64,000 nucleotides of DNA, taken from the NCBI GenBank assembly GCA_043826565.1, contig JBDRPX010000028.1, positions 16,607 through 80,606 of the forward strand, written 5' to 3'. Below are positions 92-39,411 of this stretch, one piece after another (the stretch's first letter is position 1; every line of letters begins with the position of its first letter). The notes under the pieces were generated by a model. It was not told the DNA's origin and did no database searches. It saw nothing but the letters and a program-made list of their open reading frames with translations. This DNA comes from Candidatus Omnitrophota bacterium (lineage in GTDB: Bacteria; Omnitrophota; Gorgyraeia; B26-G9). Made by a program: the position numbers and the translations under genes.

Positions 92-1153
92 ATGAAAAAT
101 AAAAAAATTGTTTTTCTCATAAGTTTTTGTCTGCTTTTGTTAAACTGCTCTGTTGCGTTCGCAACTTCATCCCCAGGATATGCATCAATATCCGGGCATG
201 TAAGCGATAAGATTATGGAAACCCCTTTACAGGGTGTATATGTCTTAATAAAATGCGGTTCATTTAAATCTTCGGTGATTACGGATGCTTCCGGATATTA
301 TGAATTTCCTCAAGTTCCTATTGATAAAAAGAAAAATAAAGATCAGGATAAAGCGCAGATTATTGTGCTTGCAAAACAATACCGTCCGGAAATAAAAAAA
401 CTTAATTTAAAGCCTAATAAAAATTACACCGTTGACTTCGCGCTCAATACGTTATTTCAATACCCTATTCTTAAGGGGAAGATAATTGATAGTTCTACTT
501 CTGAAGGTATTGCCGGAGCTCTAATTACTGTAAAAAATCCAAAAGAGACTTATACGGCAATAACCAATACACTTGGTCATTATGTTCTGCGGATAATGAA
601 CCGGCGAAAAGGCAAGTATACAGTAGAAGCTAGTGCTGATGGGTATATATCCAGCGCACCTCAAGTCCTAACAACCCGTCCACGCCTTACCTATACTTTA
701 AATTTCTCCCTAGATAAGGTAATGCTGGGAATTAATGTATCTCCGGATTCTTGGAACATTGGGGAAATAGCTCCTGGGAACATAGCGACAATGTCTTCCG
801 GACAAGAAATAGTTGTCAGTAATATAGGTTGGGAGACAAATCAGACCTATAGTCTGATGGTGGTCAATCCTTCAGGATGGACTGTTTCTCAAACTAGTGT
901 CGGAAGTGACAAATATATTTTAAATGCTTCTTTTGCTGAGAATCCGCTAACTATAAATTGGAATGAAGCTAATCACGCACTTTCTACAGAAGCTCAGAAA
1001 GCAACAAATACTAAATTTGCCGCGGATCAGACCGGGGTTAATGTCGCGCCGAATGAAGAACGAACTCTTTGGCTGCAATTTAAAGCTCCGACATCGACAA
1101 CTATTACCCAACAGCAGGAAATTGAGGTAATTATAAATACACAAGCTCCTTGA
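92..1153 (+). CDS. Secreted protein with two carboxypeptidase-regulatory-like (CarbopepD_reg) beta-sandwich domains
   Basis: N-terminal signal peptide (MKNKKIVFLISFCLLLLNCSVAFA). Two segments with the G-V-x-D..G-x-x-V..DxxGxY pattern typical of CarbopepD_reg domains. Long clean ORF. Confidence 0.6.
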   Translation: MKNKKIVFLISFCLLLLNCSVAFATSSPGYASISGHVSDKIMETPLQGVYVLIKCGSFKSSVITDASGYYEFPQVPIDKKKNKDQDKAQIIVLAKQYRPEIKKLNLKPNKNYTVDFALNTLFQYPILKGKIIDSSTSEGIAGALITVKNPKETYTAITNTLGHYVLRIMNRRKGKYTVEASADGYISSAPQVLTTRPRLTYTLNFSLDKVMLGINVSPDSWNIGEIAPGNIATMSSGQEIVVSNIGWETNQTYSLMVVNPSGWTVSQTSVGSDKYILNASFAENPLTINWNEANHALSTEAQKATNTKFAADQTGVNVAPNEERTLWLQFKAPTSTTITQQQEIEVIINTQAP

Positions 1154-1233
1154 TTATAAGGAGCTTTTATATAGATCGGTATTTTATATTAATTGTTAAA
1201 CATGTGAAAAAGGAATGAAAGGAGGAACAAGAA

Positions 1234-1707
1234 ATGAAGAAAGGGTTAATTTTAGGATTAATTATAGTTTTGTTGTGCGCGGCCAACGCGATGGCGCAGA
1301 CAGCCCAAATAGCGGTTACGGTTACAATCACTCAGAGTATTTCCGTGTCGGTAACTCCGGGCAGCTATGCGTTTGGGGGAACTGATTCCGGGCAGACTTT
1401 GTCTACAGCAGCAGGCGCGTTTGTCGCGACAAACGATGGAAATGGCGCAGAAAATCTTGCGATAACAGTTGGTGACAGCGCGAATTGGACCGCAAGTACA
1501 GCAGCAGGCGCGGATGCATTCGCGATGAATGCTTATATTGGAGCTACTTGGGCTTTGATAGATCCGGCAAGCGGAGTAAGTTTAGATGCCGGGTTAGCAC
1601 CAGCAGGAACCCAGAGTTTTGGGTTACAGCTTTTAGTGCCGACTTCTACATCTAATGCCGGAGTTGAACAGACTATTCCGGTAACAGTTACAGCATCAGC
1701 AAGTTAA
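1234..1707 (+). CDS. Small secreted Ala/Thr/Gly-rich protein, possibly a pilin/SCPU-like beta-strand subunit
   Basis: RBS AGGAGGAAC 8 nt upstream. Signal peptide ending AMA|QTA. Alternating T/V/A beta-strand-like N-terminus. 157 aa. Confidence 0.5.
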   Translation: MKKGLILGLIIVLLCAANAMAQTAQIAVTVTITQSISVSVTPGSYAFGGTDSGQTLSTAAGAFVATNDGNGAENLAITVGDSANWTASTAAGADAFAMNAYIGATWALIDPASGVSLDAGLAPAGTQSFGLQLLVPTSTSNAGVEQTIPVTVTASAS

Positions 1708-1725
1708 ATTTAAACTGAAGTTTGC

Positions 1726-1770
1726 GGGAATAGGATAGAAAGTGCGAAATATGCTTTTTATCCTATTCCC
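1726..1770. terminator. Perfect 12-bp inverted repeat (GGGAATAGGATA...TATCCTATTCCC) with a long loop, downstream of the 1234..1707 gene
   Basis: Arms at 1726-1737 and 1759-1770 read directly from the sequence. The loop is 21 nt and the T-tract is weak, so this may be a terminator or an operator-like hairpin. Confidence 0.35.
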
Positions 1771-1803
1771 CAGTACCTTTTAGAAAAAGAAAGTATATTT
1801 ATA

Positions 1804-2247
1804 ATGAAATCATTTTGTTTACTAATTATATTTTTATTAGCGCCGGTTACCGTTTATGCCGGAGGATTATCCTCTAATTGGGGGGAAGTTATTGTAAATA
1901 ATTTAGAACCGGGTAATACCTATGATCTTAATGAGATTGCCGGGAGTACTTTTAAAATCACTAATAATTTTGATAAGGAAATAACCATAAAGCTGGAAGT
2001 TTTAAGGCCAATAGAAGAAGAATTAAAACCAGGGTATGAACCGATTGAAAATACTTCCTGGGTGCAAATAGAGGAAGAAGCAAAAATCAATGCCGGAGAA
2101 TATAAAGTTATTCCCATAAAAATATCTATTCCTGATGATAGCAAGTATTTGGGAAAGAAATATCATTTTTGGGTATGGACGTATACTTCCGGGCAGGCTG
2201 TAGGTGTAGGATTAAAAAGCAGGATATTGATTTCGATAATAGATTAG
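1804..2247 (+). CDS. Small secreted hypothetical protein
   Basis: Signal peptide MKSFCLLIIFLLAPVTVYA. 147 aa. No recognisable catalytic motif. Confidence 0.5.
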   Translation: MKSFCLLIIFLLAPVTVYAGGLSSNWGEVIVNNLEPGNTYDLNEIAGSTFKITNNFDKEITIKLEVLRPIEEELKPGYEPIENTSWVQIEEEAKINAGEYKVIPIKISIPDDSKYLGKKYHFWVWTYTSGQAVGVGLKSRILISIID

Positions 2248-2261
2248 ATATTTAAAATGTT

Positions 2262-5200
2262 ATGATAAGAAAATTAATTTCTACAATAATAGGCATAATC
2301 TTAATGTTCGGGGTAAGCAGTTCTGCTTTAGCCGGACTTTCGGAGACGATTCTGCTTACTGTAACTGTCACTGATAATGACCCGCCTCCGTTTGTGGAAA
2401 TACTTTCTCCAATAGAAGGACAGGCCTATTCCGGAAGTTTTGAGATCCGGGGTACAGCTACAGATGATAATTTTGACTATGCTCAGCAGTATCATGGCCG
2501 GGGCGCAGTGCCTACAGAGTGGCTTTTGGATGATACCTATGATGATCCGTTTGAAAACTTTGTCGTTGCGAATGCTGATATAAGTGAAACAATAAACGGT
2601 GTTTACTCTATAAAATTTTGGGCAATAGATACTGCCGGACATGAAGCAGAAGATATTGTGATTTTTTCAATTGAAAATCCCCTTGTCTTACATACTCCGG
2701 CATCTTCTGAAGAAATGATTTCACCAAATGCCGATGGAAACAAAGATACAGTTGTCTTTTCCGCATATACTAATGATCCCAGAGTCAATTGGGATATTTC
2801 TATAAAAAATGATAGCAATGTGGAAATAAGGCATATCAGCGGAAGCGGAGCAGTTATTAGGGAAATTCCTGATCCTGGTGATCCGGGTGATACGAATGAA
2901 GCGGCAGTTATCGAACAGGTTTGGGATGGAAAAAATAATTCCGGAGTTGTTGTGTTGGATGGAAATTACACCTTTGAAATAATGGCTAATTATAATGGCC
3001 AGACTGTTGGGCCGGTTGGCGGTCAGGTTGAAGTTGATACAGCTCCACCGATAGCGCAGATTATCTCTCCGCAGGATTATGATGTTATCTCCGGAACCAT
3101 TGAAATGATCGGAACAGCAACTGATGCAAATTTTGAAATATGTGAAGTATATCATGGGTTAGGGGATGCCCCCGCGGAATGGGAGTTATTAAATGAATCA
3201 TACACAATTCCCCAGATCAATGCTGTTTTATTGTCAGCAAATATAATGGAAACAGTTAATGGCCTGCATTCTTTGCGGATTGTGGTTAAAGATAAAGCGG
3301 GCAATGAATCCATAGATACTCTTATAGTGGAATTTCAGAATGAGTTTAGATTATCGGATGGTGATGTTTCGGAGGATTTATTTTCTCCTAACACGGATGG
3401 GAACAAAGATACAGTTACAATTTCCGCGCGAACTAATGAAGAAACAGCCGCATGGACAATTATTATAAAAGATTCTATTGGCGCGGAAGTTAAACAATTT
3501 TCCGGACAAGGTGCTCAGATAGAACAGATTTGGGATGGTAAGGATGATTTCGGAGTTGTTGTGCCGGATGGAGTTTATACTTATGAGATCAGGGCTGCTT
3601 ATAATAGCCAGACTTTGGGTCCGTTAACCGGAACAGTAGAAATAGATACAGTTTATCCTGCGGCGGTGATTAGTTATCCGCAGAATGATGATGTAGTGAC
3701 CGAAGGCCCGAGGGTTGATGTGATTGGAACAGCCACAGATGATAATTTTGTGAGGTGTACTGTTTATTCAGGGTATGGGAGTAATCCTGATGAATGGGGG
3801 TATCGAGATACTTATAATGAACAAAAATCAGCAGAAATTTTGGCTGTTTTCGGAGTGTATTCACCTTTAATTAATACTACTTATGGAGCAAAAATAAGTG
3901 TTTTAGATAGAGCCGGCAATGAATCTGTGGCAACAGTGGTTTTTGATGTAAATTTAGGTTTTTATATTACTAATCAAAATGCTTCTTCGGCATTTATTTC
4001 TCCGAATGCTGACGGAGCTAATGATACCACAACGATTACAGCGGATGTTGTGGGATATATTTATTCTAGTACCTGGTTAATTTCTATTAGAGATTCGATA
4101 AATCAGGAAGTAAAACAGTTTAGCGGTTCAGGAAATATTAATCAAATATGGGATGGTAAGGATGCGCAGGGACAAGTGGTTCCTGATGGAGAGTATACTT
4201 ACGTGATAACCGCTACTTTTGGAGAGCAGACTACAGATCCTGTACAGGGAACTATTACTAAAGACACAGGGACTCCTATTGCTTTGATTACTTCCCCGCA
4301 GGAAAATGAAATTATTGATGATGGGCATACTGACCTTATCGGTACAGTGGGTGATGAAAATTTAGCCCAATATTCAGTTTATTACGGTCAGGGAAATTCC
4401 CCAGCAGAGTGGCATTTAATAGGGGCAGAGACTCATCATAGACTGAATGATGAGCTGGTGGTTAATGGCTGGTATACACAAGGATTGGGAAATGGCGCAT
4501 ATACTGTGCGGCTATTAGTAGAAGATAAAGCGGGAAATAAAGCTATAGATGATGTTTTAGTTGAAGTTAATAACGGGTTTTATATAGAGAATTACAATGC
4601 AAATCCTGAAAATATCTCGCCTAATAATGATGGATTTAAGGATAGCACAGTAATTAATGCGACAGTTGTTGGATATGAAACTAACTGGACGATTGCTATT
4701 AAAGATATAGAGAACAATATTATCCGTCAAATAAATGGTTTTGGTTTTAGCATTAACTTTGTTTGGGATGGGAATAATGAATCAGGGGAGACGGTTCCTG
4801 ACGGTATTTATACGATAGAAATTACGGCTGCATATAATACTATTACTACCGATCCTGTGGGTAGTCAGATTCAGGTAGATGTTTCTCCGCCAATAGCTAT
4901 TATTGCATCTCCGCAGGAAAATGCTGTTGTTTCCGGTTATGTAGAGATTTCCGGAACAGCTGCTGATGAAAGTTTTAAACAATATTCTGTTTTTTATGGT
5001 GAAGGGGCTGCTCCTGCAGAATGGAGTCAATTGGCAGTGAATAGTTATATTAAAGTTGATGAGGTATTAGCGTACTGGGATACTCGAGATTTAAATAACG
5101 GCACATATTGCCTGAAATTAGTTGTGGAGGATAATCATAATCTTGAGACCGAACAGATTATTCAGGTTGAAGTTGATAATGGATTTTCTATAATCAACTT

Positions 5201-8200
5201 TTGGATGGATCCGGATTATATTTCACCGAACGGAGATAATTTTAGAGATACAACTTCATTTCATGCGCAAATAATCGGGTATGCTGCGGATTGGGCAATT
5301 AGTATTAAAAATTCTGAGAATATGGAAGTTAGACGGCTTAGTGGACAAGGCTATTCAGTGAATGTTTCCTGGGATGGTAAAAATGAGTCAGGCATAGTAG
5401 TCCCGGATGGTGATTATACCTGGGAGCTTACTGCTGTATATAATACTCATACAGCAGATCCGATAAACGGGACCATAAAAATTGATGCTGCTTTTCCGAT
5501 AGCAGAAATAATTTCGCCTTTGCAAGATGAAGCAATTTCCGGAGAGGTTGATATTATGGGAACTGCTAATGATGCGAATTTTCATAGTTTTTCTCTTCAT
5601 TATGGCAAAGGAACAGATCCTCAGACTTGGGTATCTCTTTGTACGTCGCAGGATCCTGTGACTAATGGCATGTTGAATACATGGAATACTAATAATCTTG
5701 TAAATGGCATTTATACCTTGAGACTTGGAGTATGGGATGAGATAGGAAATAGTGTTTTTGATTTTGTACCGGTATTTTTGGCGAATGACCTTATTTTTGA
5801 AGATGTTAATATTACCCGTGATAGGATTTCTCCAAATGATGATGGTTTGAATGACAATACAATAATCACCGCTTGGACTAATGAAGCGGAAGCAGTCTGG
5901 ACGATTTCCATAAAAGATTCTACAGAGACAGTAGTGCGTGAGTTTACTGGTCAGGGATCTGATATAGAACAGGTATGGGATGGAAAGAACGAAGGGGGTG
6001 TTGTAGTAGACGGGGAATATAGCTGCGAGATAAGTGCAGAGTATAACAGCCAGACTGTTAGCGTGATTGCGGGAACTGTTATTGTGGATATTACTCCGCC
6101 GACAGCAATAATAACCTCGCCTGTTGAGAATGATAATGTTGCCGGGATTGTTACAATAACCGGGCAAGCTAATGATATTCATCTAAGTTCAAGAACACTT
6201 TATTACGGGCAAGGAGCTGGTCCAACAGAATGGATACAGCTATCTAATGTGGATTGGAATGAAGATGGTTTTAGCGCAACATGGGATACTTCTGGTCTGA
6301 CTAATGGGGTTTGTGTGTTACGTTTGGTAGTTAATGACAATTTTTCTCAGCAGACTATTAATTATGTTTCAGTTAATGTGCAAAATCCGTTAGTGTTGAT
6401 TTCTCCGAGTGTTGATTTTGAATATATAACTCCTAATGGTGATGGTATTCAAGATAATGTGACAATTACCGCTGTGGTAAATGAGCCACAAGCTAACTGG
6501 ACGATTTCCATAAAAGATTCTACAGAGACAGTAGTGCGTGAGTTTACTGGTCAGGGATCTGATATAGAACAGGTATGGGATGGAAAAGATGAGTTTGGTG
6601 TAGTTGTTCCGGACGGTGAATATACATATGAAGTAACTGCCGAATATGATACCCAGACAGCTGGGCCGGTTAGCGGGACAGTTATTGTGGATAATACTCT
6701 ACCTATAGCTGAAATAATATCTCCGCAGGAAAATGGAACGATTATGTGGTTTATGTCTATTATCGGAACAGCTAAAGATGATAATATCGCGGATTATTCT
6801 ATAAGTTATGGAAGAGGGGATGCTCCGGATACCTGGAGTACTTCTAGCCTTACCTTAAAGAGTCCAAGAAATATTTCCCGGGAAAATATTGAATTAGCTA
6901 CATGGAATACATCGGATAATTTTAATGATAGATATACGATAAAGCTTTCCGTTATTGATTTAGCCGGAAATACATCTACGGCTGAGGTTAGAGTAGATTT
7001 AGCTACCGGATTATGGATTCAAGATGCAGCGAGTAGTTTGAATTATATGTCTCCGAATGGAGATGGCGTTAAAGACACAGCAGCTATTAGCGGACGTCTA
7101 AATGAAGAATTCGCAAATTGGAAAGTTGAAATAAAGACTTCCTGGGGGGCGGTGATTCGCCAGTTTAGCGGACTGGGGTATAATATATCACAAGTTTGGG
7201 ATGGTAAAGACGAAACCGGAACTGTGGTAGATGACGGTGCGTATATATGGGAAATCAACGCAGAATATAATGGGCAAACCGCTTCTCCGGAAAGCGGTTG
7301 GATTACAGTTGATCTTAATCTGCCAACTGTTTCCATAACGACTCCTGGGGAAAATGATATTGTAAGCGGAAGTGTGAAAATAATTGGCACAGCAACAGAT
7401 GCGAATTTTTACTATTATAAATTTTCTTATGGAGTAGGTGCTGATCCTGTTGCTTGGAACAACTCTAATAATATAAGTACTCCTGTAGAAGATGGTGTTT
7501 TGGCTACTTGGTCTACTGGTAATCTAATCAATGGTATATATTCCTTAAGAATCATGGCCTGGGATCGCTTATTGCAGGTATCTTCAGATACGATTTTGGT
7601 TACCGTGGCTAATGAACTAACTTTACAGAATAGTTCTGTTTCTTTAGATGTAATATCTCCAAATGAAGATGGACAAAATGATAGTACAATAATAACAGCT
7701 TGGACAAATGAAGAATTAGCTACCTGGGCTATTTCCATAAAGAATTCCACAGATGGAGTAGCGCGTGAGTTTACCGGTCAGGGGTCTGATATAGAGCAGG
7801 CCTGGGACGGTAAAAATGAAACGGAAACAGTGGTTGCTGACGGTGAATACACTTATGAGGTTAGTGTTGAATATAATAGTCAGACAGTTGGCCCGATAGG
7901 CGGTACGATTATTGTAGATTCAACTGCACCTATTGCTTTAATTAGTTTACCTGGAGAAAATGATATTGTTAGCGGGAATGTGGATATTATTGGTATTGCT
8001 GCTGATCCTAATATGCATAAATATTATATTCATTATGGAAAAGGAACTGCGCCGACTGAGTGGACAAACATTAAAGAGAGTACGCAAACAGTAGATAACG
8101 CAGTTTTATTTACCTGGGATACGTTGAATAGAACTAATGGAATATATACATTAAGACTTCTGGTTCGTGATATTGTTAATAATGAATCTATGGATACTGT

Positions 8201-9758
8201 AAGTATTATTTTGAATAATGAACTGATATTAGATAATCTTACCATTTCCTTGGAGGTAATTTCTCCGAACGCAGATGGAAATAATGATAGCACAACAATT
8301 ACAGCTTGGACAAATGAAGAGTTAGCTAACTGGACGATTTCCATAAAAGATTCAGCAAGTACAATTGTACGTCAGTTTACCGGCCAGGGTTCTGATATAG
8401 AGCAAGTCTGGGATGGTAAAAATGAAACGGAAACAGTGGTTGCTGACGGAGAGTATACTTATGAGGTTAGTGCTGAATATAATAGTCAGACAGCGGGCCC
8501 GATAGGCGGTACGATTATTGTAGATTCAACTGTTCCGATTGCTGTGATTAGCTCTCCTGGGGAAAATGAAACTGTTTGGGGGGATATTTCTGTAATTGGA
8601 ACTGCTAATGATGCGAATTTGTTGTGGTACAGAGTATATTATGGAGAGGGGGAAAATCCCCAGACATGGTATCAGCTTATAAGTTCAAGTAACAGTGTTG
8701 TAAGCGGCCAATTGACAAGTTGGGATACTCTAACATTCCCCAACGGTATTTATACTTTAAAGTTACTTGTAAGAGATACTGTAAGTAATATATCGGAATA
8801 CTATACTAAGGTTAATCTGGAAAATATGGAAATTAAGAATGTGTCTGCTTCCCAGCAGTTTATTAATCCTGCGCATTCAGAGATTAGCACAATAGACTTT
8901 ATTTTGGATCGGGATGCGCAAGTAGCAGTAAAGATGTATCACGTATACATTAGATTTAATTCACTTGAAGGTACATATACGAGGAGTTATGTGGATACTG
9001 TAGCAACAGTTTTTGGTCAAGCCGGGGGTAACAGCTGTGTTTGGGACGGCCGGGATTCCGGAGGGGACCTGATGTCTTATGGAGCTTATGTTTATGAATT
9101 GGAAGCACTTGCTCCTGATGGGCGAAATGGGTTTTACGGCCCTGATTATGTGCGTGGTTTTGTGGATGTGACTAATATGACGGTAAATGCTAATGCGAAT
9201 CCGTATTATTGTGAGCGTTATAAAATCGATTATGATATTTCCCAGCCGGCTTTTGTAGTGATTGCTTTTAAAAATTTAGTAGGAGCTGTTTTGTGGGGAG
9301 AGCCAAGGTCAGCGGGAGGTCATTATGAATACTGGGATGGACGTAATCCTTTTACCGGTAAGATAGTGAATAATCAAACGACAACGCTAAGCGGGTTTGC
9401 CTGGACTTTGCCGGATAATTGTATTGTTGTTTATGATGACACATTGGAAATAACTGAATTATCCAGTGGAAGCTTTTTGATTCAACCGGGGTATAGCCAG
9501 GTTAGTAGTATAGGATATGCGATTAATGAAGATGCGGAAATTACAATTAAGTTATCTGATCCTAATGGTAATTATTGTAAAACACTTATAGATAATTCAC
9601 TTGTCAGCGCCGGGGCTTATCAAGTAGAATGGGATGGAATGAATGATGATGGAGAGCTTGTCTCAATAGAAGGGGATTATATCATTGAAGTTACCGCGTC
9701 TACTCCCGGAGGAGAAACTACGGTTATTAGAAGAGGCAATATAAAAGTCTATAAATGA
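2262..9758 (+). CDS. Giant modular cell-surface adhesin (2498 aa) built of tandem Ig-like plus FlgD-Ig-like modules
   Basis: Signal peptide. About 12 tandem ~200-aa modules. Each pairs a 'PIAxIxSPxxNxxVxGxVxIxGTAxDxNF..YYGxG..PxEW..WDTxxLxNGxYTLRL' domain with a FlgD-Ig-like 'ISPNxDGxNDxxxI..W(T/A)IxIKDS..FxGQGxxIEQVWDGKxExGxVVxDGEYTYE' domain. The C-terminal ~400 aa hold two more FlgD-Ig-like 'WDGRD/WDGMNDDGELV' units. Confidence 0.85.
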   Translation: MIRKLISTIIGIILMFGVSSSALAGLSETILLTVTVTDNDPPPFVEILSPIEGQAYSGSFEIRGTATDDNFDYAQQYHGRGAVPTEWLLDDTYDDPFENFVVANADISETINGVYSIKFWAIDTAGHEAEDIVIFSIENPLVLHTPASSEEMISPNADGNKDTVVFSAYTNDPRVNWDISIKNDSNVEIRHISGSGAVIREIPDPGDPGDTNEAAVIEQVWDGKNNSGVVVLDGNYTFEIMANYNGQTVGPVGGQVEVDTAPPIAQIISPQDYDVISGTIEMIGTATDANFEICEVYHGLGDAPAEWELLNESYTIPQINAVLLSANIMETVNGLHSLRIVVKDKAGNESIDTLIVEFQNEFRLSDGDVSEDLFSPNTDGNKDTVTISARTNEETAAWTIIIKDSIGAEVKQFSGQGAQIEQIWDGKDDFGVVVPDGVYTYEIRAAYNSQTLGPLTGTVEIDTVYPAAVISYPQNDDVVTEGPRVDVIGTATDDNFVRCTVYSGYGSNPDEWGYRDTYNEQKSAEILAVFGVYSPLINTTYGAKISVLDRAGNESVATVVFDVNLGFYITNQNASSAFISPNADGANDTTTITADVVGYIYSSTWLISIRDSINQEVKQFSGSGNINQIWDGKDAQGQVVPDGEYTYVITATFGEQTTDPVQGTITKDTGTPIALITSPQENEIIDDGHTDLIGTVGDENLAQYSVYYGQGNSPAEWHLIGAETHHRLNDELVVNGWYTQGLGNGAYTVRLLVEDKAGNKAIDDVLVEVNNGFYIENYNANPENISPNNDGFKDSTVINATVVGYETNWTIAIKDIENNIIRQINGFGFSINFVWDGNNESGETVPDGIYTIEITAAYNTITTDPVGSQIQVDVSPPIAIIASPQENAVVSGYVEISGTAADESFKQYSVFYGEGAAPAEWSQLAVNSYIKVDEVLAYWDTRDLNNGTYCLKLVVEDNHNLETEQIIQVEVDNGFSIINFWMDPDYISPNGDNFRDTTSFHAQIIGYAADWAISIKNSENMEVRRLSGQGYSVNVSWDGKNESGIVVPDGDYTWELTAVYNTHTADPINGTIKIDAAFPIAEIISPLQDEAISGEVDIMGTANDANFHSFSLHYGKGTDPQTWVSLCTSQDPVTNGMLNTWNTNNLVNGIYTLRLGVWDEIGNSVFDFVPVFLANDLIFEDVNITRDRISPNDDGLNDNTIITAWTNEAEAVWTISIKDSTETVVREFTGQGSDIEQVWDGKNEGGVVVDGEYSCEISAEYNSQTVSVIAGTVIVDITPPTAIITSPVENDNVAGIVTITGQANDIHLSSRTLYYGQGAGPTEWIQLSNVDWNEDGFSATWDTSGLTNGVCVLRLVVNDNFSQQTINYVSVNVQNPLVLISPSVDFEYITPNGDGIQDNVTITAVVNEPQANWTISIKDSTETVVREFTGQGSDIEQVWDGKDEFGVVVPDGEYTYEVTAEYDTQTAGPVSGTVIVDNTLPIAEIISPQENGTIMWFMSIIGTAKDDNIADYSISYGRGDAPDTWSTSSLTLKSPRNISRENIELATWNTSDNFNDRYTIKLSVIDLAGNTSTAEVRVDLATGLWIQDAASSLNYMSPNGDGVKDTAAISGRLNEEFANWKVEIKTSWGAVIRQFSGLGYNISQVWDGKDETGTVVDDGAYIWEINAEYNGQTASPESGWITVDLNLPTVSITTPGENDIVSGSVKIIGTATDANFYYYKFSYGVGADPVAWNNSNNISTPVEDGVLATWSTGNLINGIYSLRIMAWDRLLQVSSDTILVTVANELTLQNSSVSLDVISPNEDGQNDSTIITAWTNEELATWAISIKNSTDGVAREFTGQGSDIEQAWDGKNETETVVADGEYTYEVSVEYNSQTVGPIGGTIIVDSTAPIALISLPGENDIVSGNVDIIGIAADPNMHKYYIHYGKGTAPTEWTNIKESTQTVDNAVLFTWDTLNRTNGIYTLRLLVRDIVNNESMDTVSIILNNELILDNLTISLEVISPNADGNNDSTTITAWTNEELANWTISIKDSASTIVRQFTGQGSDIEQVWDGKNETETVVADGEYTYEVSAEYNSQTAGPIGGTIIVDSTVPIAVISSPGENETVWGDISVIGTANDANLLWYRVYYGEGENPQTWYQLISSSNSVVSGQLTSWDTLTFPNGIYTLKLLVRDTVSNISEYYTKVNLENMEIKNVSASQQFINPAHSEISTIDFILDRDAQVAVKMYHVYIRFNSLEGTYTRSYVDTVATVFGQAGGNSCVWDGRDSGGDLMSYGAYVYELEALAPDGRNGFYGPDYVRGFVDVTNMTVNANANPYYCERYKIDYDISQPAFVVIAFKNLVGAVLWGEPRSAGGHYEYWDGRNPFTGKIVNNQTTTLSGFAWTLPDNCIVVYDDTLEITELSSGSFLIQPGYSQVSSIGYAINEDAEITIKLSDPNGNYCKTLIDNSLVSAGAYQVEWDGMNDDGELVSIEGDYIIEVTASTPGGETTVIRRGNIKVYK
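5897..5986 (+). repeat. Intragenic 90-bp exact direct repeat, copy 1; copy 2 lies exactly 600 bp downstream
   Basis: The 90 nt 'ctggacgatttccataaaagattctacagagacagtagtgcgtgagtttactggtcagggatctgatatagaacaggtatgggatggaaa' is identical at 5897-5986 and 6497-6586. Confidence 0.8.
6497..6586 (+). repeat. Intragenic 90-bp exact direct repeat, copy 2
   Basis: Identical to 5897-5986. A second near-identical pair of about 115 bp lies at about 7810-7925 and about 8413-8528, offset 603 bp. Confidence 0.8.
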
Positions 9759-10624
9759 GAAAATATATTATATCTTTAATGTTATTAATATTTATATGCT
9801 TAACGGCAGTTTTTTGTCAGGGACAGGGAATGATTAAAGGCAAAATTGCTTATTCGGGGTTTACCGACGGATATTGGCAGATTTGGGTTATGGATTGCGC
9901 GGCAAAGTCTGCAGTTCAGCTGACCTCATCAAAGGTTGATAAAAAGACCCCGGTTTGGTCTCCGGAAGGAAAGAGAATTATTTATCGTACCAGCAACGGT
10001 GAATTTTTTCTGATTGATGTCGAAAGTAAAGAAGAAAAAAGAATATTTTCTAAGTTGGGATATCTGGTTGATCCATCATGGATTAGCTTAGAACGGATTC
10101 TTTTCGCGCGCTATCGTAGTGACTTAAAAGATGACAGTGATATTTGGAGCGCTGATCTTAATGGAGCCGGCGTAAAAGTAATAAATGAGGATTTGGGATT
10201 GCAGTACTTTCCGGCGATTTCTCCGGATGGGGAAAAAATAGTATATGTTTCCGGGAAAAAAGCGCATGAACATGATATTTGGGTTATGAATAAAAACGGG
10301 CAGGATAAAGTTCTGCTTGTTCAAAAATACGGCTATGACATTTGTCCGCGCTGGTCTCCTGACGGAAAGAGTATTGTGTTTGTTTCCGACCGTACGGGAA
10401 GCTATGAGATTTGGATAATGAATGCGGACGGAAGTAATCAAACGCAGTTTACCCGTACCAAAGGGTATAATAATAATCCGGCTTGGTCTCCTGACGGAGA
10501 AAGAATAGTATTTGTATCCAATGCCGGCGGGGATTTGCAGTTATGGGTAATGGATAAAGATGGCAATAATGCGGTACAGATAACAAGAGGCGCGGAATGC
10601 GTAGATCCGGCGTGGTGTTTGTAG
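9755..10624 (+). CDS. TolB-like periplasmic beta-propeller protein (PD40/WD40-like repeats)
   Basis: Signal peptide. Repeated 'P.WSPDG..I.FVS' PD40 motifs (PVWSPEGKRIIY, PAISPDGEKIVYVS, PRWSPDGKSIVFVSDRTG, PAWSPDGERIVFVS). ATGA overlap with the adhesin stop. Confidence 0.75.
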   Translation: MRKYIISLMLLIFICLTAVFCQGQGMIKGKIAYSGFTDGYWQIWVMDCAAKSAVQLTSSKVDKKTPVWSPEGKRIIYRTSNGEFFLIDVESKEEKRIFSKLGYLVDPSWISLERILFARYRSDLKDDSDIWSADLNGAGVKVINEDLGLQYFPAISPDGEKIVYVSGKKAHEHDIWVMNKNGQDKVLLVQKYGYDICPRWSPDGKSIVFVSDRTGSYEIWIMNADGSNQTQFTRTKGYNNNPAWSPDGERIVFVSNAGGDLQLWVMDKDGNNAVQITRGAECVDPAWCL

Positions 10625-10663
10625 GGACAATCTGGAAGAGGTGAGAGTATTAACACAAATAAT

Positions 10664-11788
10664 ATGCGTAGAATAATTTTTTTACCATTAATAGTAATGA
10701 TTGTAAGCGGCTGTGCCGCAAGACAGATGACTGTAAAAGAAGACCTTTATCCTGAACAAAGGTTTACGATATCTAATGTCTCGGCCAAGCCAAAGACTAT
10801 TAACAATACAAAAAGTCAGCGAGTAAAAATAGAATATTCGCTTTCGCAAGACGCGGAGGTTTCTGTTGATATATATGACAGTGATGACCGGTGGATAAAC
10901 TCAATTAAAAAAGACGTGACGGAAAAAGCCGGTAAAAATTTAGTAAAATGGGATGGTAAAGATAGTAATGAAGAACTTGTGCCTAGCGGCGCGTATATTT
11001 ATGTGATCAAAGCCAAGGATAATGCTGGTAAAAAAACAAAGTACGATCCTGCGGACATTAGTAAAGGCATCGGATTAAGTGAGCGGGAACTTATCTATAA
11101 TAAGGAAAAGAATAAAGTGCGATATATTCTTCCCCGGGCGGCAAGGGTTCTGATTCGCGCGGGTATTAAAGAAGGCCCGCTTCTAAAAACATTGGCAGAT
11201 TGGGAGCCGCGGGAAGCGGGTAAAAATTCCGAGGGTTGGGATGGCCAGGACAATGCCGGGAATTTAATAACTCAACATCCTGATTTTACTTTGTTTCTTT
11301 CCGCGTATTCTTTGCCGGATAACAGTATTATTGTAAAAAACAATAATAAAGGATTTGAATATGAATGTGCTTTTGAATTAAAAACAGAGCAGCCCCGGAG
11401 AGTCCCGCGGAATGTTACCGGAATAATCTTGCATCCTAGTGCAAAGCAAAGCTGCCGAAAAACCCGAGTGCCGCGTTTTAGTATTGAATTCCCAGAAGCA
11501 GACCATGATGAAAAAAGTGTTCCGGTTATTGCTGGTCCTACGACAATTAGGCTTAGTTGTGATGAACAGGATAAGCATCTGCTGGTTGAATCCCGTTTTG
11601 AAATCATTTGCTATATTGATAATATATTTTATTTTGAAGAGGAACAGGGTTTTACACCGTTTAATTACCGCTGGGATCCTCAGGGAATGACAGCTGGAGA
11701 ACATATTGTAACGTTTAATCTGCAAAGTTATACCGGAGCTGTGGGTACTAAAAGTTTAAAGGTTAGAATAAAAGGAAGAAAACAATAA
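10664..11788 (+). CDS. Lipoprotein with FlgD-Ig-like domains
   Basis: Lipobox IVMIVSGC|A. 'VKWDGKDSNEELVPSGAYIYVIKA' and 'EGWDGQDNAGNL' motifs matching the FlgD-Ig-like units of the adhesin. Confidence 0.7.
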   Translation: MRRIIFLPLIVMIVSGCAARQMTVKEDLYPEQRFTISNVSAKPKTINNTKSQRVKIEYSLSQDAEVSVDIYDSDDRWINSIKKDVTEKAGKNLVKWDGKDSNEELVPSGAYIYVIKAKDNAGKKTKYDPADISKGIGLSERELIYNKEKNKVRYILPRAARVLIRAGIKEGPLLKTLADWEPREAGKNSEGWDGQDNAGNLITQHPDFTLFLSAYSLPDNSIIVKNNNKGFEYECAFELKTEQPRRVPRNVTGIILHPSAKQSCRKTRVPRFSIEFPEADHDEKSVPVIAGPTTIRLSCDEQDKHLLVESRFEIICYIDNIFYFEEEQGFTPFNYRWDPQGMTAGEHIVTFNLQSYTGAVGTKSLKVRIKGRKQ

Positions 11789-14700
11789 TGAGAATTTACG
11801 CGAAAAAATTTAAAATACTATCCTTATTTATTATTATATGTTTTTTGTTTAATACTACAGTGGCTCCCTACGCGTATGCTTCACATTTAGGAGCTTGGGA
11901 TGATCATATCGGAATTCCCGGGCCGGATGTTCCTCCGCCCTATAATCCGGATAATCCGGATAATCCGGATGCGCCGCCATGCAATCCTTCGCCGCCGCCG
12001 CCGCCGGACATGTGTCCAAATCCGGAATCTCCGCCGGATCCCGGAGATGAGGATAAGAGCGAATGTACCGGAGGAGAACCGGTGTCTTTATATGACGGCA
12101 GTTTTTATTACCGGCATACCGACCTGGAAATTCCGGGAAGGATGTCTCTTTCTCTAAAAAGAGCCTATGATACCCGAAGTACCTATAACGGAGTTTTCGG
12201 ATACGGCTGGTCATTTAACTTTCATACGCGTTTATTTAAGGTATCTGACGGCACATTACTGCTTAAGCGCGGAGATAATACCGAAGATACATTTACCTAT
12301 GACAATGTAACAGGTAATCATCTTAGCCCTTTGGGTAAATACGAAACAATCATTTCTAATTCAGATGGTACCTATGTTTTAAAAAGTAAATATGGGTCAA
12401 AGTATCATTTTGATATTAATGGAGTCCTGGTAAAGATGGAAAATACAAAGGGCAACCAGATATTCTTAAGTTATGACCCGGCAGGCAAACTGCCGATTAG
12501 CGGCATATCTCCCTATTCAAACATAACCAATTCGATTGTGATCGGATATGACTACCGCTTGATAAAGATAGAAGAAGCGCAGAATGATATTCCCAGCGGA
12601 AGGTTTATAGAATTTTTCTATAATAATGACGGACGAATTATAAAGGCTAAAGATTTTACGGACAGAGAAGTTATCTATACCTATGATCCCAGCGGGAACG
12701 GAGATCTGCTGTCTGTGCAGGATCCGGAAGGTAATCTTTATGAATATGTCTATGATGAACACCGGATTGCTGTATTTTCCGATACAGCCAGCTGCAGCGG
12801 ATGCGGGGGATTGGGCGGCGGAGTGCATATAAACACCTATGATGACCAAAAGCGGATAAGCCGGCAGGTACATGGGAATAATATTGTGGATATAGAATAC
12901 ATTGTTCCTTATGAAAAAACCAAAGTAACTACGAGTATCTATAATGACGAAACCGAAGAATTTTTGCATACCCGGTATGAATATTTTGAATTTGATGAAG
13001 ATGGCTATACAATTAAACAAACCCGGCAGATGGGTGATTTTCTTGATGAAGACGGCGGCACAGAAAACGATGATATTATAAAAGAGATGGTTTATAATAA
13101 CGCGAAGAAAGTCGAGTCAAAGACCTATGCGCAAGGGAATGCTGTAGATTATACCTATGATGATAAGGGCAATATCCTGACCAAGACAGTGACATTAGAA
13201 GACGGAACTATTGTAACTACGCGGTATACTTATGAACCTAATAACAGTAAAGCAATGTCCAAAGAGATTACTTCTACGGATACTTCACAAACATACCGCA
13301 AGGAATATACGCGTTATGCTGACGGCAGTATCCACGAAGAAAAGACAATATTAGATGATACAACTACTTATACAACAACCTACACTTATACAGCTCAGGG
13401 AGATATTGATACTATAATTGATCCCAGAGGCAATACAATTAAACATGAGTATAATGGATATGGTTATCTTACCCGTGTCTATGACCCGAATAATCCAAGT
13501 CATCAGACATTATATGGTTATAATGATGTGGGCAATCGCGTATCCATGACTGATGCAAATAATAATACTTCAACTTTTACTTATGATAAACTCAACCGGA
13601 TTACAAAGATCACGACGCCTAAAAATGAAGAAACAATATATACCTGGGAAGGCACAAACTTAATCCAGATTGAAACCGGAAAATTAGGGGCGCAGGAAGG
13701 CCGGATTACGCAAATAGAATATGATGATTTAAACCGGAAAACCGCGATAAAACAGAAAAACGACAGTGCTGTTTTTGTAACTATGGCGGCTTATACTTAT
13801 GACTCCGAAGGTAAAGTTTTAACCACTACCGACGCATTAGGACATACTACGGCAAATAGTTATGATGTGATGGGGAGGCTGATACAGGTTACAAGCCCCC
13901 TGTCGCAGGCCACAAGTTATGAATATGATAAAAATAGTAATCTTATCGCTGTAATTGATGCCAATAACAATACTACAGAATATGAATATGACAAAACCAG
14001 CCGGCTTAGTAAAGTAATTCAATATGAAGGTACTGCTCCCATAGAGACAAGCTATATTTATGATTTTCAGGGGAACATTAAAACTATTACTGACGCGGAA
14101 ACTCACACAACTACTAATATCTATGATAATCTGGGCAGGCTGATACAAGTCACAAGTCCCATGTCACAAGTCACAAGTTATGAATATGATGCTAACGGAA
14201 ATCTAACTAAGAAAACAGACGCGAAAAATCAGGTTATTGAATATGAATATAATGCCTATAATCAGCTAACGCATGTTTATTATGGGGGGAAAACATCACC
14301 AATAAAGACAGTAGCTTTTACTTATGATGATGTGGGCAACATGGAAACCTGGAGCGATGGGGCTTATTCAGCAACGTATATATATGATGAATTAAATAGA
14401 GTCCTTAATGTTGCTACACAATATCCATTGGGCACAAAGACTGTATCGTATACATATGACCGGTTCGGGAACAAAGCTACACTGATATATCCGGATGCGC
14501 TGGGTGCGGTGACGTATAGTTATGATGCGTTTAATAGGTTAGTGCAGGTCACAGGTCCCATGTCGCAAGTCACAGGTTATGAATACGACAACTCTGGGCG
14601 GCTTCTAAGTAAGACTTTGCCCAATGGAGTTTATACGGATTATGGGTATGATGATGCAAATAGGCTGACGAGCTTGGTGAATAAGAAAAGTGACGCGAGT

Positions 14701-16008
14701 GTGATTAGTTCATTTAGTTATACGCATGATGGGGTGGGTAACAGAGTACAGACTATAGACCATAGACCATCGACCATGGACTATACCTATGATGATGTGT
14801 ATAGGTTAAAGCAGGTGGATGAGGATACGGTAACCACAGAGACGTATAGTTATGATAATGTAGGGAATCGGGAGACAAGTGTAGCACATAGTGATTGGAT
14901 GTATGATTCGGAAAATAAATTGCAATCTTACAACGGAATAACGTATAATTATGATAACAACGGAAATCTTATTTCAAAAGACGATAATGGTTCTTTGACT
15001 ACGTATAGTTGGGATTATGAGAATAGGTTAACAGGTGTTATTAATGCATCGAATATCAGCTATAGTTATGATCCTTTTGGGAAGCGAATAAGTAAGACTG
15101 TTGATGGAGTAACAAAGTACTATTTATATGATTCAGAAGATATCATTGTTGAGTATGATGCTGGAGGTGTTGTGGTAGCGCATTATGTGCATGGACAGGG
15201 AATAGATGAGCCGATTTCGATGACTCGAAATTCCAATACTTACTATTACACTATGGATGGATTAGGGTCAGTAAGAGGTTTGACGGATAATATAGAAGCA
15301 GTAGTTGAAAGTTATGAATATGATTCTTTTGGCAATCTTAAATCACAGCCGGCAACTGGGAATCCTTATACATACACATCAAGAGAATATGATGCAGAAA
15401 CGGAGCTTTATTTTTACCGGGCACGGTATTATGATAGTAGTGTAGGGAGGTTTATCAGCGCGGATATTATTGGATTTTTTGGGGGTATTAATTTTTATAC
15501 ATATGTAGAAAACAATCCGATATTAAGATTGGATGTATTTGGTTTAGCATGGACAACGATTGACTTTATATATCATTTTTATCGGGGTGGGGGGACAACT
15601 GTTGATATATCTACTGTAGGATTGCTAGAAAGATATAAAATGGATTCTTCCGTTGGGGTAGTGCGTAGTTTTTCGGAAATGGAAGTCAAAATTAAAACTA
15701 GAAGTTTTTATCAAACACTAAATGGAGGTGAGTCTGGAGACTTTAAAGTTTCTGGGGCAGGCCTAGTATATGTTACTACGATTTATGTATTGGCGGGGGG
15801 GTATTTAAATTATAATGGGAACTGCGTGGCAGTTAAAGACAAAAATTGTGAATGTGTGACAACTGTTTGTGAAATGTCATATAATTTTAGAGATACTTTT
15901 ACAGATCCCTTAGATACTGGGAAAGATTATGGCGGGACTAAATATGATATTATTGGTTCTTGGAAGGATACCTATTCTTATAAATACTGTCCGAGGGGTG
16001 AGAAATGA
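11788..16008 (+). CDS. RHS/YD-repeat polymorphic toxin with an uncharacterised C-terminal toxin domain
   Basis: Signal peptide, then a Pro-rich stretch (PDNPDNPDAPPCNPSPPPPPD). Dozens of YD repeats (YxYDxxGNR/L..). RHS core end 'YYDSSVGRFISADIIGFFGGINFYTYVENNPILRLDVFGL' (a DPxGL-type variant). A ~150-aa C-terminal tail (nt ~15550-16005) with no recognisable motif. Start overlaps the preceding stop (TAATGA). Confidence 0.9.
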   Translation: MRIYAKKFKILSLFIIICFLFNTTVAPYAYASHLGAWDDHIGIPGPDVPPPYNPDNPDNPDAPPCNPSPPPPPDMCPNPESPPDPGDEDKSECTGGEPVSLYDGSFYYRHTDLEIPGRMSLSLKRAYDTRSTYNGVFGYGWSFNFHTRLFKVSDGTLLLKRGDNTEDTFTYDNVTGNHLSPLGKYETIISNSDGTYVLKSKYGSKYHFDINGVLVKMENTKGNQIFLSYDPAGKLPISGISPYSNITNSIVIGYDYRLIKIEEAQNDIPSGRFIEFFYNNDGRIIKAKDFTDREVIYTYDPSGNGDLLSVQDPEGNLYEYVYDEHRIAVFSDTASCSGCGGLGGGVHINTYDDQKRISRQVHGNNIVDIEYIVPYEKTKVTTSIYNDETEEFLHTRYEYFEFDEDGYTIKQTRQMGDFLDEDGGTENDDIIKEMVYNNAKKVESKTYAQGNAVDYTYDDKGNILTKTVTLEDGTIVTTRYTYEPNNSKAMSKEITSTDTSQTYRKEYTRYADGSIHEEKTILDDTTTYTTTYTYTAQGDIDTIIDPRGNTIKHEYNGYGYLTRVYDPNNPSHQTLYGYNDVGNRVSMTDANNNTSTFTYDKLNRITKITTPKNEETIYTWEGTNLIQIETGKLGAQEGRITQIEYDDLNRKTAIKQKNDSAVFVTMAAYTYDSEGKVLTTTDALGHTTANSYDVMGRLIQVTSPLSQATSYEYDKNSNLIAVIDANNNTTEYEYDKTSRLSKVIQYEGTAPIETSYIYDFQGNIKTITDAETHTTTNIYDNLGRLIQVTSPMSQVTSYEYDANGNLTKKTDAKNQVIEYEYNAYNQLTHVYYGGKTSPIKTVAFTYDDVGNMETWSDGAYSATYIYDELNRVLNVATQYPLGTKTVSYTYDRFGNKATLIYPDALGAVTYSYDAFNRLVQVTGPMSQVTGYEYDNSGRLLSKTLPNGVYTDYGYDDANRLTSLVNKKSDASVISSFSYTHDGVGNRVQTIDHRPSTMDYTYDDVYRLKQVDEDTVTTETYSYDNVGNRETSVAHSDWMYDSENKLQSYNGITYNYDNNGNLISKDDNGSLTTYSWDYENRLTGVINASNISYSYDPFGKRISKTVDGVTKYYLYDSEDIIVEYDAGGVVVAHYVHGQGIDEPISMTRNSNTYYYTMDGLGSVRGLTDNIEAVVESYEYDSFGNLKSQPATGNPYTYTSREYDAETELYFYRARYYDSSVGRFISADIIGFFGGINFYTYVENNPILRLDVFGLAWTTIDFIYHFYRGGGTTVDISTVGLLERYKMDSSVGVVRSFSEMEVKIKTRSFYQTLNGGESGDFKVSGAGLVYVTTIYVLAGGYLNYNGNCVAVKDKNCECVTTVCEMSYNFRDTFTDPLDTGKDYGGTKYDIIGSWKDTYSYKYCPRGEK

Positions 16009-16415
16009 TTAAAAAATTTTTTATTGAATTTTTGTATTTTATTTTTGGCTCAATAATTACTTCAACATTATTTGTTATTATGCATAATTATTTTGCTAAT
16101 TATAATAATATGCCATTTTTCATAATTCTGATATTTCGAATAATAGATATATTTATTATCGGTTTTCCTGCTTTTGTGATCGCATTCCTGTGTTATATAT
16201 TAAGGAAACAAAAAGACTTTATCGATTCAAGTTGGTTCTTGGTGGGGTGTTTGTGGGCAGCGGTTTTAATAACAATAAAAAATATGCCTAACTTTTCTGA
16301 AAGATCGTTGTATCTATACGGCAAATTAATGGTATATTTTTTGCCAATGGTATTCAGCTATTTGATTGTTTTCCTTTTAAATCTTATTAGAATTAAGATT
16401 TTGGAGAAAAATTAA
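16005..16415 (+). CDS. Small polytopic membrane protein; cognate immunity candidate for the RHS toxin
   Basis: ATGA overlap with the RHS stop. 136 aa with about 4 hydrophobic helices. Position typical of rhs immunity genes. Confidence 0.5.
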   Translation: MIKKFFIEFLYFIFGSIITSTLFVIMHNYFANYNNMPFFIILIFRIIDIFIIGFPAFVIAFLCYILRKQKDFIDSSWFLVGCLWAAVLITIKNMPNFSERSLYLYGKLMVYFLPMVFSYLIVFLLNLIRIKILEKN

Positions 16416-29558: not shown

Positions 29559-29745
29559 AAATCCTCCTTTCAAGTGTTTATAATTTAGGACAATATATTT
29601 AATTTATTATACTAATTTATCATTTCCGGGGCAAGAAATAACTGGAATATAAAAAAAGTATTTATGGTAAAAGGTTTACTTTTGTGTTAGAATTTTTAAT
29701 GGATTTATAAACTTTAAATTTGTGTCGGATACATGGAGGTTTAAG

Positions 29746-39164: not shown

Positions 39165-39411
39165 TAAAACATTAACATTAAAAATTTAGTATAACAAGGC
39201 AGTTTATATATCGCAAAAACACGTCTTTGAGCTAAGTCTGCTGCGGCATCCTGCCTTGCAGCCGCGCGTTCTTACTATTTTGACATCCTTGTCAAAATCA
39301 CGTTCGAAAGCGCCGCTCAAAGAGAATTTTTGCGCTATCTAGTTAGCTTGTACATGTAAACATATATTCAAAATAGTACATGCATTATATATTAGTATTA
39401 AAATTTTTAAG

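Follow-up and report, generated by a model that had tools for sequence, protein, structure and literature searches.

A perfect 90-nt repeat points to short-tract gene conversion between old Ig-like modules of a giant gene in a predicted Omnitrophota RHS-toxin operon

The giant Ig-repeat gene found in a 64,000-nt stretch of DNA from a Candidatus Omnitrophota bacterium (hereafter the window) very probably encodes an old, diverged chain of Ig-like modules, between which short patches have recently been copied non-reciprocally and in the same module register. One patch is the tract shared by modules M6 and M7, whose two copies, as originally predicted, are identical at 90 of 90 positions with an offset of 600; it is the longest exact repeat internal to the gene. 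Intragenic gene conversion, also put forward in the original prediction, is backed by silent-site identity, sharp boundaries and nearest-neighbour switching. Together, these three features argue for short-tract conversion and against the homogenised 600-bp modules that had been proposed, the perfect tract covering 15% of one module and the Big-like halves of M6/M7 and M9/M10 sharing only 48% and 59% DNA identity, respectively.

The database entry identical to the gene product originates from a Candidatus Omnitrophota MAG, where the gene is unbroken within a contig of 87.6 kb; the claim that such repeats will confound short-read assembly is therefore weak. Behind a signal-peptide-like segment at the N-terminus, the first Big-like domain starts at about aa 41. 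Pfam searches on the protein gave FlgD_ig (PF13860; 226 bits over 11 stretches, gathering cut-off 27) and Big_7 (65.9 bits). Instead of about 12 equal modules, as first counted, the layout comprises 10 complete two-domain modules (i.e. a Big_7-like Ig domain followed by FlgD_ig) of 201-221 aa (n=10), then an additional Big-like domain and three FlgD_ig-like domains of about 100 aa (Table 1). This C-terminal region is the best-conserved part of the protein among orthologues (34-40% to those of loci L001 and L006). Module pairs share 36-62% protein identity and 48-72% DNA identity; adjacent modules, announced at 50-60% protein identity, were measured at 38-62%, mostly 38-50%. Tandem Repeats Finder reported no array of module-length (~600-bp) period, because its search stops at a period of 500 and the copies have drifted too far apart. 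Judged from their sequences, the modules are old paralogues with saturated silent sites. An AlphaFold2 model of M6 (pLDDT 95.1) has two all-beta domains (beta-sandwiches), and fold matches of the tandem Ig were obtained with the extender region of a large adhesion protein (6xi3), cadherin EC1-2 and RbmA. The giant product would be exported by the Sec route as a rod-like string of Ig-fold domains.

Table 1. Features of the giant gene and of its operon, with positions in the window
Feature	Position	Strand	Remarks
o353, two CarboxypepD_reg-like domains	92-1153	+	upstream operon gene; conserved in orthologous loci
o157, small secreted protein, family unassigned	1234-1707	+	60-74% identical across Omnitrophota loci
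o147, small protein	1804-2247	+	53-62% identical across loci
Giant gene, 2498 aa	2262-9758	+	ORF; NCBI MFH2138360.1 (100% match, P0001), 'FlgD immunoglobulin-like domain containing protein'
M1	2382-3044	+	Big_7-like Ig + FlgD_ig; module alignment, identity matrix
M2	3045-3653	+	Big_7-like Ig + FlgD_ig; module alignment, identity matrix
M3	3654-4271	+	Big_7-like Ig + FlgD_ig; module alignment, identity matrix
M4	4272-4886	+	Big_7-like Ig + FlgD_ig; module alignment, identity matrix
M5	4887-5492	+	Big_7-like Ig + FlgD_ig; module alignment, identity matrix
M6, 201 aa	5493-6095	+	bears tract copy 1; module alignment
Probable conversion tract, M6 copy, 90 nt	5897-5986	+	100% identical to 6497-6586; encodes WTISIKDSTETVVREFTGQGSDIEQVWDGK
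M7, 201 aa	6096-6698	+	bears tract copy 2; module alignment
30-nt exact match M7/M10	6491-6520 vs 8324-8353	+	same interval mosaic among four modules
Probable conversion tract, M7 copy	6497-6586	+	100% identical to 5897-5986
M8, 207 aa	6699-7319	+	outside M6/M7/M9/M10 subfamily
M9, 202 aa	7320-7925	+	module alignment
M9 arm, patchy high-identity block	7635-7970	+	offset 606 to M10; dip ~7725-7790; limits approximate
M10, 202 aa	7926-8531	+	module alignment
M10 arm, patchy high-identity block	8241-8576	+	core 8397-8531; limits approximate
11th Big-like Ig domain	8532-8861	+	without canonical FlgD_ig partner; 61% nt identity to M10 Big-like half
C-terminal region, three divergent ~100-aa FlgD_ig-like domains	8862-9755	+	WDG at aa 2261, 2358, 2457
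PD40/TolB-like beta-propeller protein	9755-10624	+	start overlaps giant gene's stop
374-aa protein, one FlgD_ig domain	10664-11788	+	domain match
RHS/YD-repeat toxin (predicted)	11788-16008	+	DUF6531, 11 RHS repeats, Rhs_assc_core; N-terminal signal-peptide-like segment
136-aa multi-TM ORF	16005-16415	+	overlaps RHS stop; candidate immunity protein

The product of the M6/M7 tract forms three successive beta-strands of the FlgD_ig domain. When the M6/M7 match vector was shuffled (n=5000), the longest run of matches was 25, compared with the 90 observed; under a null model with site-specific conservation drawn from the 43 other module pairs, log10 P was -23.9, and -15.4 when the same null was drawn from the four closest module pairs. 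Inside the tract, all 27 degenerate codons for the same amino acid are the same codon in both modules, whereas outside it silent sites match at the background level (33/70 = 0.47, against 0.478 for the 43 other module pairs), which excludes protein-level selection as an explanation. The edges are sharp, M6/M7 identity being ~45% immediately 5' and ~65% immediately 3'. On the 5' side, M6 is closest to M9 and M10 (66% and 65%) and shares only 56% with M7. An over-long run of identity, synonymous identity within saturated flanks and incongruence between tract and flanks, i.e. the features by which conversion tracts are operationally recognised, were thus found together. A minus-strand ORF overlapping the M6 copy (5388-6182) was not retained as a gene, since it matches no Pfam family and M7 lacks a corresponding ORF.

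A second near-identical pair had been placed in M9 and M10. The similarity itself holds (7810-7925 vs 8416-8531, 110/116 = 94.8%), but the offset is 606 and not 603, at which identity falls to 31%. The core of this block (7791-7925) is identical at 126 of 135 positions (93.3%), against 89.7 +/- 4.2 matches expected, and 84% identity is maintained over 7610-7925. The four modules M6, M7, M9 and M10 are mosaic in the interval of the tract: M9 and M10 share 80% and 95% in the flanks, but their identity falls to 78% across the tract interval, over which both are 82% identical to M6/M7.

A protein search against 5.8 G sequences gave 30% identity for the nearest relative of the giant protein; the giant protein itself is a singleton in protein clustering, and its exact sequence was not found on any recorded contig. 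Orthologous loci were found by searches anchored on o157, the closest being 74% identical in that protein. Syntenic orthologues have 4, 7, 8 and 10 modules, modules group by genome and not by position, and the L004 and L007 orthologues align best with a register shift of one module. No comparable patch was detected in 5 of the 7 orthologous genes, where the best 90-nt windows reach 54-67/90, so that conversion appears sporadic and is no constant trait of this family. Together with the differing module counts, this indicates that module number shifts over long timescales in arrays that are mostly old and diverged.

We considered whether differing tracts could have been made identical by an assembler that popped a graph bubble or collapsed a repeat, or by polishing with mis-mapped reads. 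The tract is known from a single MAG contig, with no independent copy among the collections searched, and the collapse of an assembly bubble could render a near-identical tract perfect. Such an artefact is nevertheless improbable. The copies lie in two distinct flanking contexts, with the reading frame preserved and the module register exact; for both junctions to arise in a graph assembler, reads must contain them; and collapse presupposes a near-identity that itself needs conversion. Furthermore, the imperfect identity of the M9/M10 block (93%) and its mosaic structure form a pattern that collapse does not make, and orthologues from other assemblies have similar imperfect patches (83/90 in L003, 81/90 in L014).

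It is still harder to see M6 and M7 as products of a recent whole-module duplication that diverged fast except in one protein segment kept by strong purifying selection, a history we regard as highly improbable. The tract does lie in a relatively conserved part of FlgD_ig, ending at the invariant WDG motif, and M6, M7, M9 and M10 do make up one module subfamily. Against this, selection that conserves a protein leaves synonymous positions free to change, and these are saturated outside the tract and wholly identical inside; nearest-neighbour switching is unexpected under simple duplication; codon-level constraint was not seen and the orthologues are devoid of such identity.

We give hardly any credence to the idea that the 90 nt act as a nucleic-acid element occurring in two copies, whether as RNA motif, internal regulatory site or TR/VR pair of a diversity-generating retroelement: selection on it would likewise yield perfect nucleotide identity, but Rfam gave no match across the whole window, folding z-scores of the tract were -0.39 (plus strand) and -1.86 (minus strand), inverted-repeat and promoter/terminator scans revealed nothing specific to it, blastn self-comparison of the window found no copy beyond the giant gene, its exact 58-nt core was absent from the JGI metagenome contigs and from the GTDB genomes, and a retroelement was rejected on the lack of a reverse transcriptase among window ORFs of at least 150 aa and of adenine bias in the M9/M10 mismatches (14 A, 14 T, 13 G and 9 C).

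Under short-tract gene conversion, the 90-nt patch of M6/M7 would be one copied patch, and that of M9/M10 (~330 nt) a second one, older or composite, with smaller mosaic pieces joining M7 and M10. The copying would most likely involve misaligned modules, between which homologous-recombination repair or template switching would leave a short conversion patch without crossover; there is a weak indication that it ran from M6 to M7. As a by-product, direct repeats would be left at a spacing of exactly one module (600 and 606 bp), which could occasionally permit in-frame loss or gain of a module, and the giant gene may vary in length at present. Simulated crossovers at either patch gave in-frame products (-200, +200 or -202 codons) without internal stop codons; the in-frame outcome foreseen in the original prediction is correct but trivial.

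Short-tract conversion and concerted evolution among tandem paralogous repeats, as detected by GENECONV-type tests, are a general phenomenon. The present case resembles it in the identity run, the silent identity, the sharp edges, the incongruent phylogeny and the clustering by genome, with no essential difference; it is clean and of textbook quality, but it is ordinary gene conversion, already known. In Omnitrophota repeat proteins, the architecture goes back to ancient duplications that no longer resemble each other at the nucleotide level (bioRxiv 10.64898/2026.06.07.730766; 10.1101/2023.11.21.568195). The giant gene, from the same phylum, follows the same old-duplication pattern as these tandem-repeat scaffolds and giant genes, but its product is far smaller (2.5 kaa) than the published giants and its perfect 90-nt tract is an exception to their pattern. 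FlgD is not mentioned in these two studies, nor do they draw a link between RHS toxin genes and repeat proteins of this sort.

The designation of the protein as an adhesin is unproven, since only the stalk feature is present and the gene lies within a conserved RHS-toxin operon. Neither Pfam nor NCBIfam revealed an adhesive (ligand-binding) domain in it, only Ig-like domains of stalk type, and no surface-anchor domain, OmpA or other, was recognised. A T9SS C-terminal sorting signal was rejected because the TIGR04131 (T9SS type B) matches are internal, overlapping FlgD_ig; the C-terminal 298 aa have no match. Like fibrillar adhesins (PMC9210967), the protein has a predicted rod-like stalk of repeated Ig-like domains; in contrast, neither an adhesive domain nor a recognised anchor was detected in it, and its gene belongs to an RHS-toxin operon instead of occurring by itself. 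Periscope proteins (SasG/Aap, Rib/alpha C, Sgo_0707) combine highly identical repeats throughout the array with observed length differences between strains (PMC8201768). Similarly, the giant protein strings globular beta-sandwich domains in tandem into a long secreted chain, predicted to form an elongated rod, and identical DNA one repeat apart could permit in-frame gain or loss of repeats through intragenic recombination. It differs from them in that its modules share 48-72% DNA identity, only 90 nt and ~330 nt being similar, and in that the searches revealed neither an anchor nor a distal binding domain.

The giant gene is not stand-alone but part of a conserved operon that ends, by prediction, in a signal-peptide-bearing RHS toxin gene. 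The gene order in this operon is o353, o157, o147, the Ig-repeat giant, the PD40 propeller, the FlgD_ig protein, the RHS toxin and the candidate immunity gene; o157 and o147 have no informative family or PDB sequence match. The RHS gene product scored 246.7 bits for RHS_repeat and 73.7 bits for TIGR03696 (aa 1178-1253), and its C-terminus is a ~150-aa (151 aa) domain without annotation. The predicted layout is thus that of an RHS polymorphic-toxin locus, in which repeats and core precede a variable C-terminus and a small ORF follows the toxin gene. WapA is a Sec-dependent RHS/YD polymorphic toxin, and Rhs contact-dependent competition systems were reportedly described by Koskiniemi et al. in 2013 (cited in PMC12057145). 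The downstream gene resembles WapA-type toxins in its signal peptide, DUF6531, RHS repeats, core, variable C-terminus and adjoining small membrane ORF; the locus differs from described WapA/Rhs systems by its conserved accessory set (o353, o157, o147, Ig giant, PD40 and FlgD_ig protein), whose association with RHS toxins we did not find described in the literature searched. It is conceivable, although rather unlikely, that the Ig-repeat protein would serve as an arm of variable length in a Sec-dependent system for RHS-toxin delivery, encoded by a so far undescribed operon conserved in Omnitrophota; the reach or target specificity of this arm versus host or prey cells would then be tuned by intragenic conversion and by modules being gained or lost. 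What suggests this is the conserved synteny, the much faster evolution of the giant compared with its operon neighbours and the differing module numbers.

The conversion finding is of limited weight: it indicates that old, diverged arrays in an uncultured nanobacterial phylum still swap short patches, and it alerts annotators to the perfect 90-nt repeat within this particular gene. Its context may outweigh it: in Omnitrophota, a fast-evolving Ig-repeat protein with a module number that differs from lineage to lineage is consistently linked to a predicted gene for a secreted RHS toxin. A host-dependent or predatory way of life has been proposed for members of this phylum. Should the Ig-repeat and RHS proteins cooperate, they would constitute a candidate cell-contact weapon without a type VI secretion system.

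The region consists of a single plus-strand ORF, the giant gene, whose 2498-aa product matches the Pfam families FlgD_ig (226 bits in 11 stretches), Big_7 (65.9 bits) and CHU_C. The module layout listed in the table was obtained by reading the translation and aligning the modules. An AlphaFold2 model of module M6, built with the ten modules as alignment, displayed two all-beta domains (mean pLDDT 95.1), and a Foldseek search with this model retrieved tandem Ig-type structures, i.e. PorU, C5a peptidase, RbmA, cadherin EC1-2 and 6xi3, the latter being the extender region of a large adhesion protein. NCBI lists the giant protein, with an identical sequence, as MFH2138360.1 ('MAG: FlgD immunoglobulin-like domain containing protein [Candidatus Omnitrophota bacterium]'); it forms a singleton cluster, its contig measures 87.6 kb, and no relative above 30% identity was found among 5.8 billion sequences.

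Features of the giant gene, its cluster and the remaining window
Feature	Position	Strand	Description
Cluster	92-16415	+	Tightly packed, includes the giant gene
o353	92-1153	+	First gene of cluster; CarboxypepD_reg domains
o157, o147	1234-1707, 1804-2247	+	Small secreted proteins between o353 and giant gene
Giant gene	2262-9758	+	Signal-peptide-like N-terminus
M1-M10		+	Ten complete modules, 201-221 aa; Big_7-like Ig domain then FlgD_ig domain in each
Tract (M6/M7)	5897-5986 / 6497-6586	+	90-nt identity
M7/M10 match	6491-6520 / 8324-8353	+	30-nt exact match
M9/M10 block	roughly 7635-7970 / 8241-8576	+	Dip near 7725-7790
M9/M10 patch	7810-7925 / 8416-8531	+	Offset 606 nt
M9/M10 core	7791-7925	+	
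Eleventh Big-like domain	8532-8861	+	After M10
Three divergent FlgD_ig-like domains	8862-9755	+	About 100 aa each; C-terminal part of giant gene
PD40/TolB-like propeller gene		+	Start overlaps stop of giant gene
374-aa FlgD_ig protein gene		+	Between PD40 propeller and RHS gene
RHS gene		+	1406 aa; signal-peptide-like N-terminus, DUF6531, RHS repeats, Rhs-associated core, unannotated ~150-aa C-terminus
136-aa membrane ORF		+	Multi-TM; overlaps RHS stop codon
Unannotated ORF / AbiEii-type gene	27144-27773 / 27739-28566		Overlapping
Response-regulator/HD-domain genes	29722-30798 / 30939-31988		Diverged adjacent paralogues
TTTTGAC/TTTTGAA arrays	39408-39463, 44095-44125, 44183-44236		Intergenic heptamers
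Secretin genes	48689-50476 / 52765-54711		Diverged nearby paralogues

Direct comparison confirmed the original prediction of an identical stretch in M6 and M7, the two copies of the tract agreeing at 90/90 positions with a spacing of exactly 600 nt. No longer exact repeat occurs within the giant gene. In the M6 model the tract corresponds to module residues 135-164, which form three beta-strands in succession in the FlgD_ig domain. A second pair of similar stretches had been placed at an offset of 603 nt, where identity is 31%; the high identity itself was recovered at the true offset of 606 nt (110/116 positions, 94.8%), within a wider, patchy M9/M10 block whose core is identical at 126/135 positions (93.3%). 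Module pairs share 36-62% identity in protein (38-62% for adjacent modules) and 48-72% in DNA, and Tandem Repeats Finder, whose longest covered period was 500, detected no array of module-length period, so that the array as a whole is old and diverged. Not one of the 600-bp modules is homogenised over its length, and the proposed homogenisation of whole modules was an overstatement.

Chance is excluded as the source of the tract: when the M6/M7 match vector was shuffled 5000 times, the longest identity run reached 25, versus 90 in the tract, and a null based on per-column match frequencies in the 43 other module pairs gave log10 P = -23.9 (-15.4 when limited to the four closest pairs). Among aligned codons for the same degenerate amino acid, M6 and M7 use the same codon in 27/27 cases within the tract and in 33/70 (0.47) outside it; the latter value equals the background (0.478 over the 43 other pairs), so the rest of M6/M7 is as diverged silently as any module pair. 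The edges are sharp, identity being about 45% directly 5' of the tract and about 65% 3' of it. On the 5' side M6 is closest to M9 and M10 (66% and 65%) and only 56% identical to M7; inside the tract M6 and M7 are the same; M9 and M10, which share 80% and 95% in the flanking segments, share 78% in the tract interval, where each is 82% identical to M6/M7. These switching nearest neighbours, together with the 30-nt M7/M10 match, show that the interval was exchanged more than once among the four modules. The tract resembles M9/M10, the relatives of M6 on its 5' side, a weak hint that copying may have run from M6 to M7. The long identity run, the silent sites, the sharp edges and the neighbour switching all support intragenic gene conversion, as originally proposed.

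An assembly artefact could account for the last few percent, i.e. perfect instead of near-perfect tract identity; as the origin of the tract and patches it is unlikely, since the tract recurs in frame and in register between two different sets of flanks, the M9/M10 block is mosaic and falls short of full identity, and similar imperfect patches occur in orthologues from other assemblies. A retroelement-type mechanism is unsupported, with no reverse transcriptase among window ORFs of at least 150 aa and no adenine bias in the M9/M10 mismatches. Neither is a nucleic-acid element supported: Rfam gave no match anywhere in the window, folding z-scores were -0.39 and -1.86, no further copy of the tract was found elsewhere in the window, and a minus-strand ORF overlapping it matched no family. 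Protein-level selection is ruled out, as it does not freeze synonymous sites.

Present-day length variation, as originally proposed, is hypothetical: in simulation, a crossover in the tract would yield an in-frame product of 2298 or 2698 aa, and one in the M9/M10 patch a product of 2296 aa. Neither the JGI metagenome contigs nor the GTDB genomes contained a match to the tract core, and in the loci retrieved through o157, the conserved gene upstream, this gene was at most 74% identical to its window counterpart. Syntenic orthologues carry 4 modules (L006, 1651 aa), 7 (L001, 1860 aa; the L002 record holds the same gene, DNA-identical, and the two are possibly not independent) or 8 (L004, 2250 aa), versus 10 in the window gene. 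N-terminal to its modules, L006 has putative FN3-like and three repeated ~100-aa pre-peptidase C-terminal (PPC)-like segments, both assigned by reading the translation. Modules group by genome rather than position (36-62% identity within the window gene vs 17-35% between genes). The giant proteins of L004 (2127-8879) and L007 (2099-7219) give their best alignment when shifted by one module (41% vs 35%), which indicates that one module was gained or lost between lineages, the rest being positionally orthologous. These differing arrays, the grouping by genome and the register shift show that module number changes over evolutionary time.

The best internal 90-nt window has 90 matches in the window gene, and 83, 81, 67, 62, 59, 59 and 54 in L003, L014, L006, L001, L004, L007 and L009, respectively, a conversion-like patch thus being absent from most of the seven orthologues compared. 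This fits a recent survey that traced the repeat architectures of long Omnitrophota genes for the most part to old duplications that have lost their similarity at the nucleotide level (10.64898/2026.06.07.730766). Imperfect high-identity patches were observed in L003 (62-9142, longest exact run 39 nt) and L014 (10450-13545, 26 nt), so sporadic conversion is not unique to the window. In Periscope proteins, high DNA identity between repeats was proposed to allow intragenic recombination and length change (PMC8201768); the mechanism proposed is the same, but the giant gene lacks the high identity across the array that defines this class.

Elsewhere the window carries ordinary chromosomal genes (ABC transporter, PriA, Fmt, GAPDH, lipid A acyltransferase, secretins). 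The heptamer arrays are found upstream of priA and between two galT-like paralogues, where they occur in both orientations. Nucleotide identity is 68% between the response-regulator/HD-domain genes and 64% over 1347 nt between the secretin genes. The AbiEii-type nucleotidyltransferase toxin gene and the overlapping upstream ORF may form a type IV toxin-antitoxin pair.

The giant-gene finding is best classed as a new and clean case of short-tract gene conversion in a tandem domain array, of low to moderate interest; the RHS-linked conserved operon is the more interesting lead. The designation as an adhesin is unproven: fibrillar adhesins have an adhesive region, a stalk and an anchor (PMC9210967), of which the giant protein has the stalk only, and its gene does not stand alone but sits in the RHS cluster. 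Past the Rhs-associated core, the last 151 aa of the RHS protein matched no Pfam family, and the 136-aa ORF is a candidate immunity gene (15553-16415 for the two together). Several Omnitrophota MAGs and metagenome contigs carry the operon, with completeness varying by locus: L006 has the full gene order; L001, from the giant gene onwards, has PD40, FlgD_ig protein and an RHS protein whose C-terminus is Ntox33, followed by DUF4279; L004 has o353, o157, o147, giant gene and RHS; L003 has giant gene and RHS; L007, L009 and L014 keep the upstream part alone before the contig end. No description of the o353-to-RHS operon was found in the searchable literature, nor any link between FlgD_ig repeat proteins and RHS toxins in the library searched; synteny by itself suggests a functional link between the Ig-repeat giant and the RHS toxin. 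The o157 protein had no match in Pfam, NCBIfam or PDB sequences, and o147 gave sub-threshold hints alone (BT_3987-like_N, E 0.007; WxLIP_PGBD, E 0.05). Both are 53-74% identical across lineages, much better conserved than the adjoining giant gene. With the small upstream genes about 60% identical between lineages and the giant about 24-30%, the Ig array is evolving much faster than its neighbouring genes.
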